From positions 1 to 46,508 of the forward strand of contig JACIXQ010000008.1 of the NCBI GenBank assembly GCA_014360465.1: a stretch of 46,508 nt of DNA. Direction: 5' to 3'. Origin of the DNA: a bacterium (GTDB lineage Bacteria > Armatimonadota > JACIXR01). A program made the translations under genes and the position numbers. Below the pieces are notes generated by a model. The model saw nothing but the letters and a program-made list of their open reading frames with translations. It was not told the origin of the DNA and ran no database searches. Positions 10,805-17,814 of the stretch are shown in pieces (positions within the stretch are counted from its first letter, which is position 1; the number at the start of each line of letters is the position of its first letter).

Positions 10805-11125
10805 TCAAATCCGCAAAAAACGAGGATTTAATCTCCATCTTCTTGTTTTGGGTGCTGACCAAGTATCCTTATCAGCATCCTTCCATCCCACTCCTAAAAG
10901 CCATCCCTTCTTCGCAAGATTGCTAATTTGTTTACCTAAATACACATAGGGAGTATATCTTTTCCCACTTCCCCTTCCTCCTTCACACCCATAGCGCTCC
11001 ACCAGCTCCGAAAAATCGTCGCCGTAGCGGGCTCTGAATTCCATAATTATGTCATAGCTTGTTGCTTCTCCCCCCAAATCCCTGATGACATCCAGTATCT
11101 TTGCATACACATCCTCAACTAACAT
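10805..11125 (-). CDS. hypothetical 106-aa protein, last gene of the BMC operon
   Basis: Directly abuts the PduT-like gene (no gap) on the same strand. The basic C-terminus is 'KTRRWRLNPRFLRI'. No recognisable family. Confidence 0.4.
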   Translation of the reverse strand: MLVEDVYAKILDVIRDLGGEATSYDIIMEFRARYGDDFSELVERYGCEGGRGSGKRYTPYVYLGKQISNLAKKGWLLGVGWKDADKDTWSAPKTRRWRLNPRFLRI

Positions 11126-11677
11126 TCACCTCAAAACCCCCCATATATCTGGATGGGGAGAAGCAATTACAGAGGTGCCCACCAAAATGCCCTCTTTGGC
11201 TGCCTGTGCTGCTCCCGCTTCAACCGCTGATGTCACAGCGGAGACCTTGCCTGTCAGGGTGACGAAAGATTTTCCTCCTAAACCCCTCGCTACTCTTATC
11301 TCTATCAGCTGGACATTCGCCGATTTGGCAGCAGCATCCGCAGCCAGGATAGCCGAGGATATAGACCAGGTCTCTATTATCCCTATAGCTTCCCCTATCT
11401 CAAATTCCGTCGTGGCATTGAGGGCAGGGAAGACAGAAGGATGAAGGTTAGCAATTATCATTTTATCAATAACATTATCCTCACCAAAGGCTAAAGCTGA
11501 ATTCAAGGATGTCTCAACTTCTGCCACATCTCCACCGATTACTACGGTGAACTTGCCAGGGCAAAGTGGCGTAGCCACATAAAGGTTGACCTTTGCCGAT
11601 TTTAACATCAAATCCAGCGCCTCAACTCCCCTCGCTATGGAAACGAATTCAATAACTCCTAATGCATTCTGTGTCAT
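11126..11677 (-). CDS. pduT: tandem-BMC-domain shell protein, PduT-like (putative 4Fe-4S pore)
   Basis: 183 aa with two BMC repeats. 'ALGVIEFVSIARGVEALDLMLKSAKVNLYVATPLCPGKFTVVIGGDV' is closely similar to the Salmonella PduT N-terminus, including the cluster-ligating Cys in C-P-G-K-F. Confidence 0.8.
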   Translation of the reverse strand: MTQNALGVIEFVSIARGVEALDLMLKSAKVNLYVATPLCPGKFTVVIGGDVAEVETSLNSALAFGEDNVIDKMIIANLHPSVFPALNATTEFEIGEAIGIIETWSISSAILAADAAAKSANVQLIEIRVARGLGGKSFVTLTGKVSAVTSAVEAGAAQAAKEGILVGTSVIASPHPDIWGVLR

Positions 11678-12699
11678 CTCTCTCCTCCTTCCTGCATAAC
11701 AACAGGTATTGGCTCACCACAATTTGGACAGCGTCCATTCTTTATTTTAATTGAAAGAACCCTGAAAACATAGCGACTGATGAGACACATCCCACAGGAG
11801 GGACAGTATGTGTTCTCATAGCGATGCCCCGGTATATTCCCAATATAAACATATTTTACCCCTTTTCTTTTGGCTTCCCTGTAAGCCCACTCCATCTTTT
11901 CTATATCCGTAGGAGGGGCATGGAAATGATAGGCGGGGAAATAACGAGTAAAATGCAAAGGAACGGATTCTCCAGCGTATTTCAAATGTTGCTCAATCAC
12001 CCAATTGACAGCCTCTTCACTATCATTCACCGAGCTAACCATAAGGGAGACAATTTCAAGATGCATACCGAGTTCACGGGCTATCTTAGCATTTCGCCAG
12101 GGTATGTATGCATCCGCTTTGAGGAATTTCTCGTAACTCTCTGGGACACCCTTGATATCTATTTTTATCGCATCCAACCCCGCTTCTCTCAAACCTTCCA
12201 GAGCTTCAACCGTCATATATCCATTGGACACGATACAGGTATAAAGCATTTCTTTCTTTGCAAGCGGGAAGAGCTCAAAACAGTATTCGTAAAGAAGAGT
12301 TGGCTCGTTGAAGGAAACACAAATGCCCTGGTCCTTGCCTACAGCCATATTTATAACCTCTTGGGGTGAGATGAACCTCGTCTCCTCCACAACCTCTTTT
12401 GAAAGATGCCAGTTCTGACACCAGGGGCAGGGAAAGTTACAAGAATATGTTGAGATAGTTAGAGAAGATGTACCAGGATAAAAATGATAAAAGGGCTTAA
12501 TCTCTATAGGACGCGATTCTATAGCGCTTAGATTTCCATAAGAAAGAGTGAATAGCTCGCCATCTTTATTCACCCTCATCCGGCAGAACCCTCTTTTCCC
12601 CTCCTCTATGAGACAATGCCTTTCACATAGATGGCACTTGATGTTATTCCCCTCCACTCTCTCCCAGAGCAAAGCTCTTTTCATAGCAACTATTATCAT
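11674..12699 (-). CDS. radical SAM enzyme, AmmeMemoRadiSam (AmrS)/PflX-like family
   Basis: 341 aa. N-terminal 'CHLCERHCLIEEGKRGFC' followed by 'IEIKPFYHF...CNFPCPWCQNW' (CxxxCxxC), as in TIGR04337-type enzymes. The C-terminal cluster is 'CPSCGMC...CPNCG'. It overlaps both neighbours by 4 nt. Confidence 0.65.
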   Translation of the reverse strand: MIIVAMKRALLWERVEGNNIKCHLCERHCLIEEGKRGFCRMRVNKDGELFTLSYGNLSAIESRPIEIKPFYHFYPGTSSLTISTYSCNFPCPWCQNWHLSKEVVEETRFISPQEVINMAVGKDQGICVSFNEPTLLYEYCFELFPLAKKEMLYTCIVSNGYMTVEALEGLREAGLDAIKIDIKGVPESYEKFLKADAYIPWRNAKIARELGMHLEIVSLMVSSVNDSEEAVNWVIEQHLKYAGESVPLHFTRYFPAYHFHAPPTDIEKMEWAYREAKRKGVKYVYIGNIPGHRYENTYCPSCGMCLISRYVFRVLSIKIKNGRCPNCGEPIPVVMQEGGER

Positions 12700-14003
12700 T
12701 CTTTTCTAATCCTTATTTCCTGCGAAGTTATAGTGCTGATTACCCCATCTATAGAAGCGTGGATTCTCGCCCCAAGGGCTCCCTCCGGTATCTCTGCTAT
12801 CAAATCCCCTCTTTTCACCTTGTCCCCCACTTTCACAACGGGCTTTGCTGGCGCTCCAGCATGCTGTTTCAAAGGAAGTATCACCTCTTCCGGCTGATAA
12901 TCTACATCGCTTAGAGGTGCTGGAACATCGTAGATAGTGAGTCCGAGGCGAGATATCAGCCTGCTCGTGGGAACCCTTTTGGCGGAAAAGAGGGCTCTGG
13001 TTGAAGAAGGCTTATTTCTGTGAGGGTTGGGAATCTTATGTTCGCTAAGCTTCTGTTTTAGTGCCTGGATTATTCTCCTGGGGGAAAGTCCCATTGGGCA
13101 AGAATAATTCTCGCACAACCCACAATCGCAACAAAGGTAAGCCTCCGTCAATTTATCCTCCTCAGCGAGCCTCCAGGAAAGTACTTTCATTAAAAGGTGG
13201 GGCTCCATAGAATGTCCGAGGAGATAGCGGGGACACAATTCAGTGCATTCCCTGCAGTTACAGCAGGTTGATACTGCCCTACGGAGAACAGCGCTTAAAT
13301 CAGGCGAAAACTTCCCCCACAAAGGATGAGTTTTGGGGAAAACGAGGATACCTTTGGTAGTTTTCTGGATTGGGTAATCAAGCGAGGGGATCAACTTGCC
13401 CGTGTTCGGTCCACCTTCTACGATGAAGAACTCCTCAACGGTTGGACCTCCAGCGAGCTTCAGGGCATCCCTCACAGGAGTCCCAACTGGAAGCTTGAAG
13501 GTGCTTGGCTTCTGAACAGCTCCGCCCACTGTGACATATTTATCAACCACTGGTTGACCATCCATAGCTTTCCCAATGTTTATAACCGTCTCAACATTCA
13601 GGACGACGCAACCAACATCTAAAGGAATTCCACCTTCCGGCACGATTCTCTTGGTTACATCGTAGACAAGTATCTGCTCATCTCCTGCAGGGTAAAAATC
13701 TCCCAATATGAAAATCTCGTGCGGACCGCCGCCCTTCAACGCTTCAACAGCCTGTTTGTATTTTGCCTTCAGCGCAACGATGCCCTTCTTCGCCCTCACA
13801 GCTTCCATCGCCGCCTGCAACCCCCTGAGAAATATGGACTTCTCCCTGGGCAGGATTTGTTGGTCAACCCTCAGGAGCGGCTCGCATTCAGCTCCGTTAA
13901 CTATAAGGAACTCTGCTTGGGATGATAACTTTATATGGGTAGGGAAACCCGCTCCACCAGCTCCAACGATACCAGCTTCCCTTGCAACATCGGATAGCGC
14001 CAT
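12696..14003 (-). CDS. pduS: PduS-like RnfC-family flavin/Fe-S oxidoreductase
   Basis: 435 aa. 'GIVGAGGAGFPTHIKL' is the RnfC/PduS NADH-binding motif. It has two ferredoxin-type clusters, 'CCNCRECTELCP' and 'CCDCGLCENYSCP'. The stop overlaps the AldDH start. Confidence 0.75.
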   Translation of the reverse strand: MALSDVAREAGIVGAGGAGFPTHIKLSSQAEFLIVNGAECEPLLRVDQQILPREKSIFLRGLQAAMEAVRAKKGIVALKAKYKQAVEALKGGGPHEIFILGDFYPAGDEQILVYDVTKRIVPEGGIPLDVGCVVLNVETVINIGKAMDGQPVVDKYVTVGGAVQKPSTFKLPVGTPVRDALKLAGGPTVEEFFIVEGGPNTGKLIPSLDYPIQKTTKGILVFPKTHPLWGKFSPDLSAVLRRAVSTCCNCRECTELCPRYLLGHSMEPHLLMKVLSWRLAEEDKLTEAYLCCDCGLCENYSCPMGLSPRRIIQALKQKLSEHKIPNPHRNKPSSTRALFSAKRVPTSRLISRLGLTIYDVPAPLSDVDYQPEEVILPLKQHAGAPAKPVVKVGDKVKRGDLIAEIPEGALGARIHASIDGVISTITSQEIRIRKE

Positions 14004-15421
14004 CAGAGAATGCCACCGGTTAAAATAAACCTTCTCCTTCTACAGAAATCCCTTGGACGAGTTGGTCCCTCTCCTGTGGAGGCAACCGTCATAGCGAGGT
14101 AGCCTTCACCATCCGTGCCAACCGCTGCTGTGGAAGGTCCGTTGATTATGCAATAATTTGTATGCATCTCCTGGCGGAAACGAAGGATATTGGGTAAACT
14201 GCGAGAATGAAGTATAGATGTATGCTTGAAACCTTGTTCCGCTTTCTGAACAAGTCTCAACCCTTCCTCAAAGTTTCTTACCCGAACAAATGGGAGAACA
14301 GGAAGGAGTTGTTCCTCCATAACAAGTGGATGGTCTGTATCGCTTAGTTCTATAACGATTATCTTGGGTTCCTCTTGCGTTATAATTCCCGCCCGACGGA
14401 GGATTTCACCCGCGTCCAATCCCACCACTTCCCTCTTAATTTTGCCATCAGCAATTATCAGATTGATAATTCTCTCGGCTTCATCTCCTCTTGCTTCATA
14501 GGCTCCTTGCCTTTTCAGCTCGCGCATCAGGTTATCGGCTATGGAATCCACAGCGATGATAACCTTCTCGCCTATACAAAGGATATCATTATCGAAAGAT
14601 GCCCCCTTAATTATATCTGCCGCTGCCTTGGCTATATCAGCGGTCTCATCCACCAAAACCGGTGGATTGCCAGGACCCCCAACGATTGCCTTCTTCCCAC
14701 TTTGAAGAGCTGCTTGACAAACTCCCGGACCTCCTGCCGCCGTTACCATATCGACTTTCGGATGCTTCATCAACTCCTGAACAACTTCAATGGAGCTTTC
14801 GGCAACCGCTGTAACGAGGTTTGGAGGTCCACCCGCTTCCACAATCGCACGATTGATCACCCTTATTGCTTCCTTCGTGCACTCCTTCGCCTGGGGGTGT
14901 GGAGAGATAACAACGGCGTTACCGCCAGCTATCATCAAAATAGCGTGGCTGATAACGAAAGAAGTAGGATTGGTCATAGGGGTTATGGAGAGGATGACAC
15001 CAAAGGGCACATACTCTTGGATAGTAGTACCTTTTGGACCAACGATTATCTCCGGCTCCAGGTCTTCCATTCCAGGGGTTAGGAGGGCAGCTGCCTCGTT
15101 TTTCGCCACCTTGTGTTCCACTTTCCCCATCTTGGTTTCCTCCCTAGCCATCTCGGCAAGGCGACGGGCGTTCTTCAGGGCAGCTTGACGGATAGCTTCT
15201 ATAATCTGCCGCCTCTTATCCAGACCAAGGGCAAGGAGTTTTTTCTGCGCCTCAGCCGCCGCCTCAACAGCCTCATTTGGTGTCTGGAATATTCCATCAT
15301 CCCCTACCCTTGAAACCGGCTGGGCGCTCCTCTGGGAAATAGATGCTTGCCCTTCAAATAGCTCCTTTATAACTCTCTGAACCACTTCCCTTATTCTTTG
15401 CTCATCCAAAGCCATAGGCAA
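14003..15421 (-). CDS. CoA-acylating aldehyde dehydrogenase (PduP/EutE family) with N-terminal encapsulation peptide
   Basis: 472 aa. The amphipathic N-terminal helix is 'EQRIREVVQRVIKELF'. It has an ALDH fold with catalytic Cys in 'DNDILCIGEKV', the BMC-type AldDH family. Confidence 0.8.
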   Translation of the reverse strand: MPMALDEQRIREVVQRVIKELFEGQASISQRSAQPVSRVGDDGIFQTPNEAVEAAAEAQKKLLALGLDKRRQIIEAIRQAALKNARRLAEMAREETKMGKVEHKVAKNEAAALLTPGMEDLEPEIIVGPKGTTIQEYVPFGVILSITPMTNPTSFVISHAILMIAGGNAVVISPHPQAKECTKEAIRVINRAIVEAGGPPNLVTAVAESSIEVVQELMKHPKVDMVTAAGGPGVCQAALQSGKKAIVGGPGNPPVLVDETADIAKAAADIIKGASFDNDILCIGEKVIIAVDSIADNLMRELKRQGAYEARGDEAERIINLIIADGKIKREVVGLDAGEILRRAGIITQEEPKIIVIELSDTDHPLVMEEQLLPVLPFVRVRNFEEGLRLVQKAEQGFKHTSILHSRSLPNILRFRQEMHTNYCIINGPSTAAVGTDGEGYLAMTVASTGEGPTRPRDFCRRRRFILTGGIL

Positions 15422-15432
15422 CTACCTCCTTC

Positions 15433-15702
15433 TTATTTGCCAATATCAATGGAATCTATGATGCCCACTATAGAGGCATCAACTGGCGCCTCCGGGTTAT
15501 CAACCGCCAATCTTGCAGGAGACCCAAGAGCCACAACGACCATCTCACCGATACCAGCTCCAACAGTATCAACAGCAACAAACGGGTCGCCTCTTTGCTT
15601 ACCCTCTGGGGTAAGGGGCTGAACTACAAGGAGTTTGAAACCCTTAAGGTCCTCTTCCTTGCGAGTTGAGACGACCATACCTATTACCTTCGCTATTATC
15701 AA
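15433..15702 (-). CDS. BMC vertex pentamer (BMC-P; EutN/PduN/CcmL family)
   Basis: 89 aa. 'MIIAKVIGMVVSTRKEEDLKGFKLLVVQP...DTVGAGIGEMVVVALGS' is the typical EutN/CcmL fold sequence. Confidence 0.8.
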   Translation of the reverse strand: MIIAKVIGMVVSTRKEEDLKGFKLLVVQPLTPEGKQRGDPFVAVDTVGAGIGEMVVVALGSPARLAVDNPEAPVDASIVGIIDSIDIGK

Positions 15703-16322
15703 TTTCCTTCCTCCTCCTTTATTTGGATTCCTAATCTCTCCGCCAACTCACGTGCCATATCCGTCACGATCGAGCCCTGAGGAATTACCAAAACCTGTAA
15801 TCCCTTCTCTTTGCTCTCCCAGATGTCCTCCTGAGTTATTATCGTGCGTGGAGAAGGAGAGAGTGAGGACGCCGGTTTAGAAGCTTGGGGGGTTCTTATA
15901 CCGAGAGAGAGAATCTTCTCCCAGTGGCTTCTCAGGAGCTCTGCCAGCGCTTGAGGGCATTGGGGAGGAATGGTCAAAGGCTCAACTATTGGGGTTTTAC
16001 CCTGTAGAAGAAGATTCAGAACTGCCTCAAGCGGAGGGGTATCAAATAGTCCAAGGGATATTTTAGCCACATCCGCCCACTTGACATTCACCAGCCAGAT
16101 TTCCTCAAAAGCATCTATCGCCTGGTTTTTACTCCAAATTAAAGGGGATTTTCCCTCCCTTCTCAGCTTATCGAGGAAATCTTGGGGTGGTGAATTGTGG
16201 AGGGATATGACCAGGACCAGCTTTCCCTGGGAAGAAGGGACAGGAGGCGGGACCGCCTCCTGGTTCGTTAAGAGGCGACGAACCTCCGCCTCCACAAGTT
16301 GAACAAGGCGGTCTATATCCAC
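15699..16322 (-). CDS. hypothetical BMC-associated protein with N-terminal encapsulation-peptide-like helix
   Basis: 207 aa. N-terminal 'IDRLVQLVEAEVRRLL' amphipathic helix, then a Pro-rich linker 'PPPVPSSQG'. Its C-terminus, 'VLVIPQGSIVTDMARELAERLGIQI', matches no family that I can assign. It is not PduL (no HxH repeats). Confidence 0.45.
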   Translation of the reverse strand: MDIDRLVQLVEAEVRRLLTNQEAVPPPVPSSQGKLVLVISLHNSPPQDFLDKLRREGKSPLIWSKNQAIDAFEEIWLVNVKWADVAKISLGLFDTPPLEAVLNLLLQGKTPIVEPLTIPPQCPQALAELLRSHWEKILSLGIRTPQASKPASSLSPSPRTIITQEDIWESKEKGLQVLVIPQGSIVTDMARELAERLGIQIKEEEGN

Positions 16323-16363: not shown

Positions 16364-16663
16364 TTATAGCTTGAACTTCTCCAACAGCTTCTCCAGGCTC
16401 TCGTGCGGTCGGGCAATGATGTGGACGGAAATGACCTCTCCTACTTTCTTGGCATTTGCAGCTCCGGCATCAACAGCAGCTCTGACAGCACCTACATCTC
16501 CTCTCACCATAACGGTCACATAAGCTGAACCAACCTTCTCATAGCCCACGAGGACAACATTAGCTGCCTTGACCATTGCATCGGCAGCCTCAATCGCACC
16601 TACAAGTCCTCGGGTTTCAATCATTCCTAATGCTTCCATTCTCACAGCGGGGGCTTCAGCCAC
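16364..16663 (-). CDS. BMC-H hexamer shell protein (PduA/J-like)
   Basis: 99 aa. '[32 protein letters not shown]' is the canonical BMC domain. Confidence 0.85.
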
Positions 16664-16708: not shown

Positions 16709-17026
16709 TCATTCTATTTCAAGAAATTTCTGCCTTTCAGAGCCTACGGTTTCCCTACTTTCTATTAGGAAAACGAGGCTCTCCACCGGGCGAGGTATAA
16801 TATGAAATGACACAACTTCACCTACCTTTTTCGCCTCAGCCACTCCAGCTTCCACCGCGGCCTGAACCGCCGCCACATCTCCAGCAAGTTTAATCACGAG
16901 CATCCCACCACCACCTTTCGCGAGCTCATATCCAATTAATCGGACAGAAGCAGCTTTACAAGCCGCATCAGCCGCAGTCAATCCAGCGGTCAAACCCTTA
17001 ACCTCTATCAGACCTATTGACTCCAT
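16709..17026 (-). CDS. BMC-H hexamer shell protein with short C-terminal extension
   Basis: 105 aa. 'IGLIEVKGLTAGLTAADAACKAASVRLIGYE' is a BMC domain. It overlaps the aldolase 3' end by 29 nt. Confidence 0.8.
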   Translation of the reverse strand: MESIGLIEVKGLTAGLTAADAACKAASVRLIGYELAKGGGGMLVIKLAGDVAAVQAAVEAGVAEAKKVGEVVSFHIIPRPVESLVFLIESRETVGSERQKFLEIE

Positions 17027-17768
17027 CCTTGTTCAATTCCTCCAGAACTTTCCTTGTTATCCTATCAACCAGTTTCTGCATATCTATATTTCCCAGAGCA
17101 CAGAGACCACAATCCTCGCAGATAGGATTTGAAGAGACCCTATTGCGGGATTGCAAAAGTTTTAACACCTCTTCAGTAGTAAGAACCCTCTCCCTTCCCA
17201 AGAGGCGAGCAAGTAGCGATATCTTTGCATAATGCTCCAGCGTCTCCATCCGGTAATAAGCCTGAATGGGGCTATCACCAACCGTAAAGGCACCGTGGTT
17301 TTCAAGAAGAACCGCGTTTCTGTTTTTTATATATGGTCTTATTGCCTCAACAAGCTCGGGAGTGCCCGGCGTTCCATAGGGAGAAAGAGGAACTCCGTCA
17401 AGATGAAGAATTGCTTCGGGAAGGATTGGATGTTCAAGGGAAATTCCTGCCACAGCGAAGGCAGTTGCGAAAGGAGGGTGGGCGTGAAGAACAGCTTTCA
17501 CATCGGGACGCTCCTTGTAAATCATCAGATGGACAAATATCTCCGATGATGGCTTCAGATAACCCTCGGTGGCGTTTCCGTCCATATCCACTTTCACTAT
17601 CATATCAGGAGTCATAAACCCCTTTGAGACACCGGTGGGGGTTGTGAGGACAAAATTATCGTCCAACCGGCAAGTGATGTTTCCATCGTTGGCTGCGACG
17701 AAACCCTTCTGCCAGAGCCGTCTGCCAACTTCTATTATTTCTTGTCTTAAAGCGCTTTCCTTTTCCAT
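16998..17768 (-). CDS. class II aldolase (L-fuculose/rhamnulose-1-phosphate aldolase family) with C-terminal Cys motif and encapsulation peptide
   Basis: 256 aa. It has an Aldolase_II fold ('GFVAANDGNITCRL', 'HAHPPFATAFA'). The C-terminal tail 'PICEDCGLCALGNIDMQKLVDRITRKVLEELNK' carries a CxxCxxC triad followed by an amphipathic helix. Confidence 0.8.
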   Translation of the reverse strand: MEKESALRQEIIEVGRRLWQKGFVAANDGNITCRLDDNFVLTTPTGVSKGFMTPDMIVKVDMDGNATEGYLKPSSEIFVHLMIYKERPDVKAVLHAHPPFATAFAVAGISLEHPILPEAILHLDGVPLSPYGTPGTPELVEAIRPYIKNRNAVLLENHGAFTVGDSPIQAYYRMETLEHYAKISLLARLLGRERVLTTEEVLKLLQSRNRVSSNPICEDCGLCALGNIDMQKLVDRITRKVLEELNKDGVNRSDRG

Positions 17769-17785: not shown

Positions 17786-17814
17786 ATTTTACAGAGCTAT
17801 TTCGGCTGTGTCAA
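17786..17814 (-). promoter_or_regulatory. sigma70-type promoter for the BMC operon (minus strand: -35 TTGACA, 17-bp spacer, -10 TAAAAT)
   Basis: The reverse complement of 17786-17814 reads TTGACA-cagccgaaatagctctg-TAAAAT. The -10 element lies about 17 nt upstream of the aldolase ATG. Confidence 0.45.

Follow-up and report, generated by a model that had tools for sequence, protein, structure and literature searches.

PduS and PduT are iron-sulfur proteins of bacterial microcompartments (BMCs) whose genes are reported to be almost always adjacent, and PduS has been proposed to act as an NADH-driven reductant of encapsulated activases of glycyl radical enzymes (GREs) (PMC6325248). A GRE activase is also the sole PF04055 (radical SAM) model in the 2021 BMC catalogue, and our search of the literature for radical SAM enzymes in microcompartments returned no report of a non-activase radical SAM enzyme in a BMC. 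As for the AmrS/PflX family of radical SAM enzymes, literature searches for AmmeMemoRadiSam, for AMMECR1 together with radical SAM and for PflX found no functional study; the only published idea that we found is a speculative role of the AMMECR1-linked system in RNA-base modification (PMC2034487). Here we describe an AmrS/PflX-type radical SAM gene lodged between pduS and pduT in the window, the whole 46,508-nucleotide stretch of DNA that was analysed. It is an intact, selectively maintained core gene of a BMC operon featuring an aldolase and an acylating aldehyde dehydrogenase, a type of locus that is not described in the 2021 catalogue. On balance, we lean towards the interpretation that its product is an AmrS/PflX-type enzyme that came from archaea in an ancient transfer, probably receives its electrons from PduS, and works on a conserved substrate at the compartment or inside it.

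The operon consists of ten genes, all on the minus strand, with the aldolase gene first and the gene for a 106-aa protein (p106) last:

17786..17814, minus strand: best sigma-70-like promoter match (TTGACA-17-TAAAAT), a consensus match alone, directly upstream of the aldolase gene
16998..17768, minus strand: class II aldolase (PF00596) whose C-terminal tail carries a CxxC pair and a helix like an encapsulation peptide
16709..17026, minus strand: BMC-H shell protein (PF00936)
16364..16663, minus strand: BMC-H shell protein (PF00936)
15699..16322, minus strand: 207-aa protein (p207) with an encapsulation-peptide-like N-terminal helix, a domain of flavoprotein (HFCD) fold and, at the C-terminus, a small domain like the EutQ N-terminus
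15433..15702, minus strand: BMC-P pentamer (EutN/CcmL; PF03319)
14003..15421, minus strand: acylating aldehyde dehydrogenase of the EutE/PduP type (PF00171; PRK15398, 550 bits, cutoff 403)
12696..14003, minus strand: PduS-like NADH/FMN/2x[4Fe-4S] oxidoreductase (Pfam Complex1_51K, SLBB, Fer4_17, RnfC_N)
11674..12699, minus strand: radical SAM enzyme, 341 aa, AmrS/PflX-type (edge of TIGR04337)
11126..11677, minus strand: PduT-like BMC-T shell protein with two tandem BMC domains (PF00936) and the pore motif PLCPGKF
10805..11125, minus strand: p106, syntenic in all loci, of a family that also forms the N-terminal domain of HNH nucleases

The shell is represented by two PF00936 proteins, one PF03319 protein and one tandem PF00936 protein. 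The N-terminal helix of the aldehyde dehydrogenase looks like an encapsulation peptide on inspection of its sequence, the aldolase had no NCBIfam equivalog match over the cutoff, and p106 is possibly a nucleic-acid binder or a regulator. A search of the window against Rfam gave no RNA family. The 30 ORFs tiling the window contained no phosphotransacylase or alcohol dehydrogenase domain (PF06130, PF01515, PF00465) to accompany the aldehyde dehydrogenase, which leaves PduS as the only visible NADH-oxidising component. The PduS-like protein, which scored 251 bits with the rnfC subfamily, combines the FMN/NADH and dicluster domains of a PduS, with two CxxCxxCxxxCP motifs in its translation. The PduT-like protein had eut_PduT as its top NCBIfam match (123.5 bits, under its cutoff), and its PLCPGKF, in which the pore cysteine and the other residues are invariant in nine loci, conforms to the PduT-type pore-cysteine motif (C-P/S/A-G-K/R/S-Y/F; PMC6325248).

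The radical SAM ORF (11674-12699, minus strand) starts with ATG and encodes 341 aa; a plus-strand translation of this interval was rejected, as it has stops throughout. The NCBI gene call (P0001) gives a 336-aa protein starting five codons further in, and we favour the first ATG in view of the N-termini of homologues and the ribosome-binding site. The protein has the following elements:

12583..12636, minus strand: N-terminal cysteine box C22-x2-C25-x3-C29-x9-C39, read from the sequence, with all four cysteines invariant in 60 family members
12481..12513, minus strand: family signature R63-P-I-E-I-K-P-F-Y-H-F, in which R63, P64, E66, K68, P69, F70 and H72 are invariant
12418..12441, minus strand: radical SAM cluster motif C87-x3-C91-x2-C94 (C87-NFP-C91-PW-C94-QNW), invariant in the family
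11719..11805, minus strand: C-terminal zinc-ribbon-like module C299xxC302 ... C324xxC327, absent from the sequence-only reading of this DNA

The N-terminal box, which reads C22-H-L-C25-E-R-H-C29...C39, is a candidate auxiliary metal or cluster site. The cluster motif falls within the PF04055 match (residues 82-229), and residues 305-317, within the C299-C327 module, form beta-hairpins in the structure model. Some homologues have precomputed zinc-ribbon Pfam matches. The motifs quoted in the sequence-only reading (CHLCERHC...C, IEIKPFYHF and CNFPCPWCQNW) are all found on the minus-strand ORF, and its provision that the cysteine motifs might be frameshift artefacts can be set aside, because these residues are invariant in the alignment of 60 family members, which has twelve invariant cysteines in three groups. 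The family-invariant non-cysteine residues throughout the barrel, such as E132-P133, S158-N159-G160 and D181-K183-G184, are also all kept, and their retention points to conserved catalysis beyond cluster binding alone.

The TIGR04337 HMM matched residues 11-336 with 224.5 bits (E 1.7e-66), a margin of 4.5 bits over the cutoff of 220, and the scores of clade members and archaeal relatives are likewise marginal (220-258 bits). By comparison, the PFLA (TIGR02493) HMM gave 36.8 bits (cutoff 231.75) and the PFLE_PFLC (TIGR02494) HMM 19.4 bits (cutoff 174.35), so that the earlier assignment to the AmrS/PflX type rather than the PflA type holds by sequence. The enzyme shares 51-59% full-length identity, the three cysteine groups and the RPIEIKPF signature with archaeal TIGR04337 'AmrS/PflX' enzymes, from which it differs in being bacterial, in lying between pduS and pduT in a BMC operon and in forming a clade of its own. 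Its identity to PflA (PDB 3C8F) is only 19%, and unlike PflA and the GRE activases it has an extra N-terminal module of ~75 residues with four cysteines, a C-terminal zinc-ribbon-like module and no cognate GRE nearby. The structure model, which is of high confidence, has a PFL-AE-like partial-barrel core; a sequence search of the PDB gave no match at E up to 0.01.

In a neighbour-joining tree confined to the 120 closest matches, with an outgroup sequence entered by hand, the BMC-linked radical SAM enzymes formed one monophyletic group in 48/50 bootstraps, and archaeal sequences surrounded this group, with Thermoplasmatales, Ferroglobus and uncultured archaea as the sister tips. The clade comprises ten protein clusters, all ten from the same bacterial lineage; it keeps every family-invariant residue and shows only seven clade-specific substitutions, all conservative. 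The GC content of the gene (43.5% versus 45.4% for the window) is not anomalous and its GC3 is unremarkable, which gives no support to a recent transfer and fits an old one. Most likely, judging from these comparisons, the gene was acquired from archaea long ago by an uncultured deep-branching bacterial lineage.

This conservation bears on the substrate. Because the BMC-linked enzyme keeps all the invariant residues of its archaeal orthologues, its substrate is most likely the conserved molecule on which they act, be it a cofactor, a metabolite or some macromolecule of wide conservation. No BMC genes were present in the 77 non-BMC loci retrieved for the closest relatives, and neither was the aldolase or p207, save for one weak aldolase match. 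The cysteine tail of the aldolase and the 207-aa protein, which had been put forward as targets, are therefore unlikely ones, since the invariant residues of the enzyme match those of archaeal orthologues whose loci lack these proteins, and a lineage-specific cargo protein of any kind would be an unlikely substrate. Moreover, conservation in the aldolase tail is limited to the CxxC pair, so that a CxxCxxC cluster site there was rejected, and p207 is a flavoprotein-fold BMC accessory. The latter shows a weak resemblance to TIGR02536 and to the N-terminus of EutQ, two families whose annotation stems from ethanolamine-utilisation loci; a profile of the 207-aa family, when searched against the PDB, gave only chance-level matches, and the idea that p207 is an AMMECR1 or Memo in disguise was rejected on account of its HFCD fold. 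The GCEGGRGSG loop of p106 was considered as a glycyl-radical carrier and rejected, as the loop is general in a small family that includes HNH-nuclease fusions.

A substrate from the pathway itself has been weighed against these data. The enzyme might act catalytically on a small-molecule intermediate, for example by dehydrating or isomerising what the aldolase consumes or produces, or by C-C chemistry on it, in each case through radicals, in place of the B12-dependent or glycyl-radical enzyme of other microcompartments; its gene is invariably present in the locus, sited among enzyme genes, and the locus offers no other candidate signature enzyme except an aldolase of undefined specificity. 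The near-complete residue conservation with archaeal orthologues, 0/77 of whose non-BMC loci carry BMC genes, argues against such a role, as do the top structural match of the model, which is a protein-acting activase, and the lack of a precedent in the BMC catalogue. We thus consider a pathway catalyst unlikely.

The sequence-only reading stated that the window contains no GRE, AMMECR1 or Memo, and a Pfam scan of the 30 tiling ORFs indeed gave none of these domains (PF01228, PF02901, PF01871, PF01875). In the gene-called loci L081-L086, neither AMMECR1 nor Memo (PF01871, PF01875) was found up to 10 kb away. The 77 closest non-BMC relatives yielded 138 immediate neighbours, among which AMMECR1 and Memo were outside the top 25 families (cut-off, 3 members), and ten neighbours inspected singly, from five bacterial loci, included neither (0/10). 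Motif and tblastn scans of 87 sources revealed a single AMMECR1-like ORF (L070), the Memo regular expression used in the motif scan being possibly too strict; tblastn with a 132-aa part of the L070 ORF hit nothing else at E below 0.05. The missing AMMECR1 and Memo genes are not distinctive of the BMC locus, because its closest relatives also lack them as neighbours. Elsewhere, members of the radical SAM family are dispersed over unrelated gene neighbourhoods.

The order pduS-radical SAM gene-pduT was kept in 9/9 related loci examined (seven distinct contigs). With p106 following the BMC-T gene, the order was seen in L001, L002/L081, L003, L082, L083, L084, L085 and L086, of which L083-L086 were recovered via the 207-aa protein, independently of the radical SAM enzyme. 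The flanks downstream of the operon differ between loci and the radical SAM slot is retained. The radical SAM enzymes share 66-77% of their residues with the copy in the window, and DnaE identity in this lineage is 68-80%, which we count as purifying selection on the former. The functional tie to the BMC that had been proposed from a single locus is strengthened by the occupation of the same slot in all nine. From the aldehyde dehydrogenase gene to p106, the genes are spaced by -1, -4, -4 and 0 nt. The pduS stop and the radical SAM start meet in gaATGAtaa, preceded by AAGGA, and the radical SAM stop and the BMC-T start meet in gagagATGAcac, preceded by GGAGGA; both 4-nt overlaps (ATGA) noted earlier are thus real. 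They suggest translational coupling but do not show the stoichiometric co-expression that had been read into them.

These features are pertinent to the view that the enzyme is a cytosolic AmrS-type housekeeping protein, with AMMECR1 and Memo possibly encoded elsewhere, whose place in the operon reflects only co-regulation or PduS as a convenient reductant and which plays no part in the chemistry of the compartment. Its sequence is indeed very conservative in comparison with the housekeeping archaeal orthologues, relative to which it has no encapsulation peptide, terminal extension or amphipathic tail, and the scattered neighbourhoods of the family would suit such a protein. However, the gene splits an otherwise almost always adjacent pduS-pduT pair, with overlapping stop and start codons, and the slot is kept in every locus, although DnaE of the lineage falls to 68% identity and the downstream flanks differ. 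A mere passenger in the operon is, in our judgement, improbable.

The sequence-only reading had suggested a cargo protein as the possible target; in the wider form of this idea, the enzyme would install a glycyl or other stable radical, or another modification, on a canonical GRE encoded elsewhere or on an unrecognised cargo or shell protein of the operon. After TIGR04337, the best HMM matches are the activases NrdG, YjjW and PflA, and a part in servicing activases has been proposed for PduS/PduT in GRM compartments (PMC6325248). These activase scores are far under the cutoffs, however; neither the window nor the 10 kb around the locus in six gene-called cases contains a GRE domain (PF01228/PF02901), and the GRE-like glycine motif R[VIT]xG[YFW] is absent from all operon proteins. 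The lineage-specific candidates also look unlike partners in radical chemistry, given the flavoprotein fold of p207, the HNH-associated domain family of p106, whose cysteine is not conserved across the wider family, and the aldolase tail that keeps CxxC only. We regard an activase role as quite unlikely. An iron-sulfur wire from PduS to the PduT pore cluster, with SAM chemistry dispensable, would exploit the position of the gene between pduS and pduT and the twelve invariant cysteines in three groups, but it is hardly credible with all the non-cysteine invariant barrel residues retained, and we know of no precedent for it.

In the interpretation that we prefer, that of a PduS-reduced enzyme active at the compartment or inside it, NADH would be generated within the compartment by the aldehyde dehydrogenase, and PduS would oxidise it to deliver single electrons via its FMN and its pair of [4Fe-4S] clusters, perhaps with p207, given its flavoprotein fold, as an intermediate carrier. 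The electron would then reduce the [4Fe-4S] cluster bound by the CX3CX2C motif, and SAM would be cleaved to a 5'-deoxyadenosyl radical that removes a hydrogen atom from its target molecule, in keeping with the chemistry of the family. Binding to PduS and PduT might recruit the enzyme, possibly to the lumen. Membership of the operon is by itself no proof of a role in the compartment. The potentials of the PduS FMN and especially of the PduT cluster lie well above those typical of radical SAM clusters, so that the electron route is uphill and unproven. With the measured values of +99 mV for the PduT cluster and -150 to -262 mV for the PduS FMN (as cited in PMC6325248), the self-contained electron route of the sequence-only reading is thermodynamically doubtful through PduT.

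The locus could, more speculatively, represent a third kind of radical microcompartment, with a free-standing, PduS-fed radical SAM enzyme in place of B12 or a GRE, serving either as the signature step or as an in-organelle cofactor or repair enzyme. We hold this to be rather unlikely; if it is true, the reaction catalysed here would also reveal the function of the orphan AmrS/PflX family, as the enzyme differs so little from its archaeal orthologues. AmrS/PflX enzymes are widespread in archaea, and a ten-gene unit with an obvious candidate reductase and few possible partners makes heterologous reconstitution and a substrate search practical. The locus also provides a concrete test of the role of PduS/PduT outside B12 recycling, an unresolved question (PMC6325248), and a probable case of archaea-to-bacteria transfer fixed within an organelle operon.

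Comparison with the described microcompartments sets the locus apart in several respects. Like the GRM microcompartments, it encodes a radical SAM enzyme alongside the PduS/PduT iron-sulfur pair; unlike them, it has no GRE, its radical SAM enzyme belongs to a different family, and its pduS-pduT pair is split. With MUF3, MIC4, PVM-like and FRAG7 it shares a class II aldolase that bears its encapsulation peptide at the C-terminus and a PduS that adjoins a pore-cysteine BMC-T, and with FRAG6/7 a flavoprotein-like accessory. In contrast to MUF3, MIC4, PVM-like and FRAG7, it lacks phosphotransacylase and acetate kinase, encodes just one BMC-P and carries a radical SAM gene, which does not figure in the catalogue descriptions of those types.

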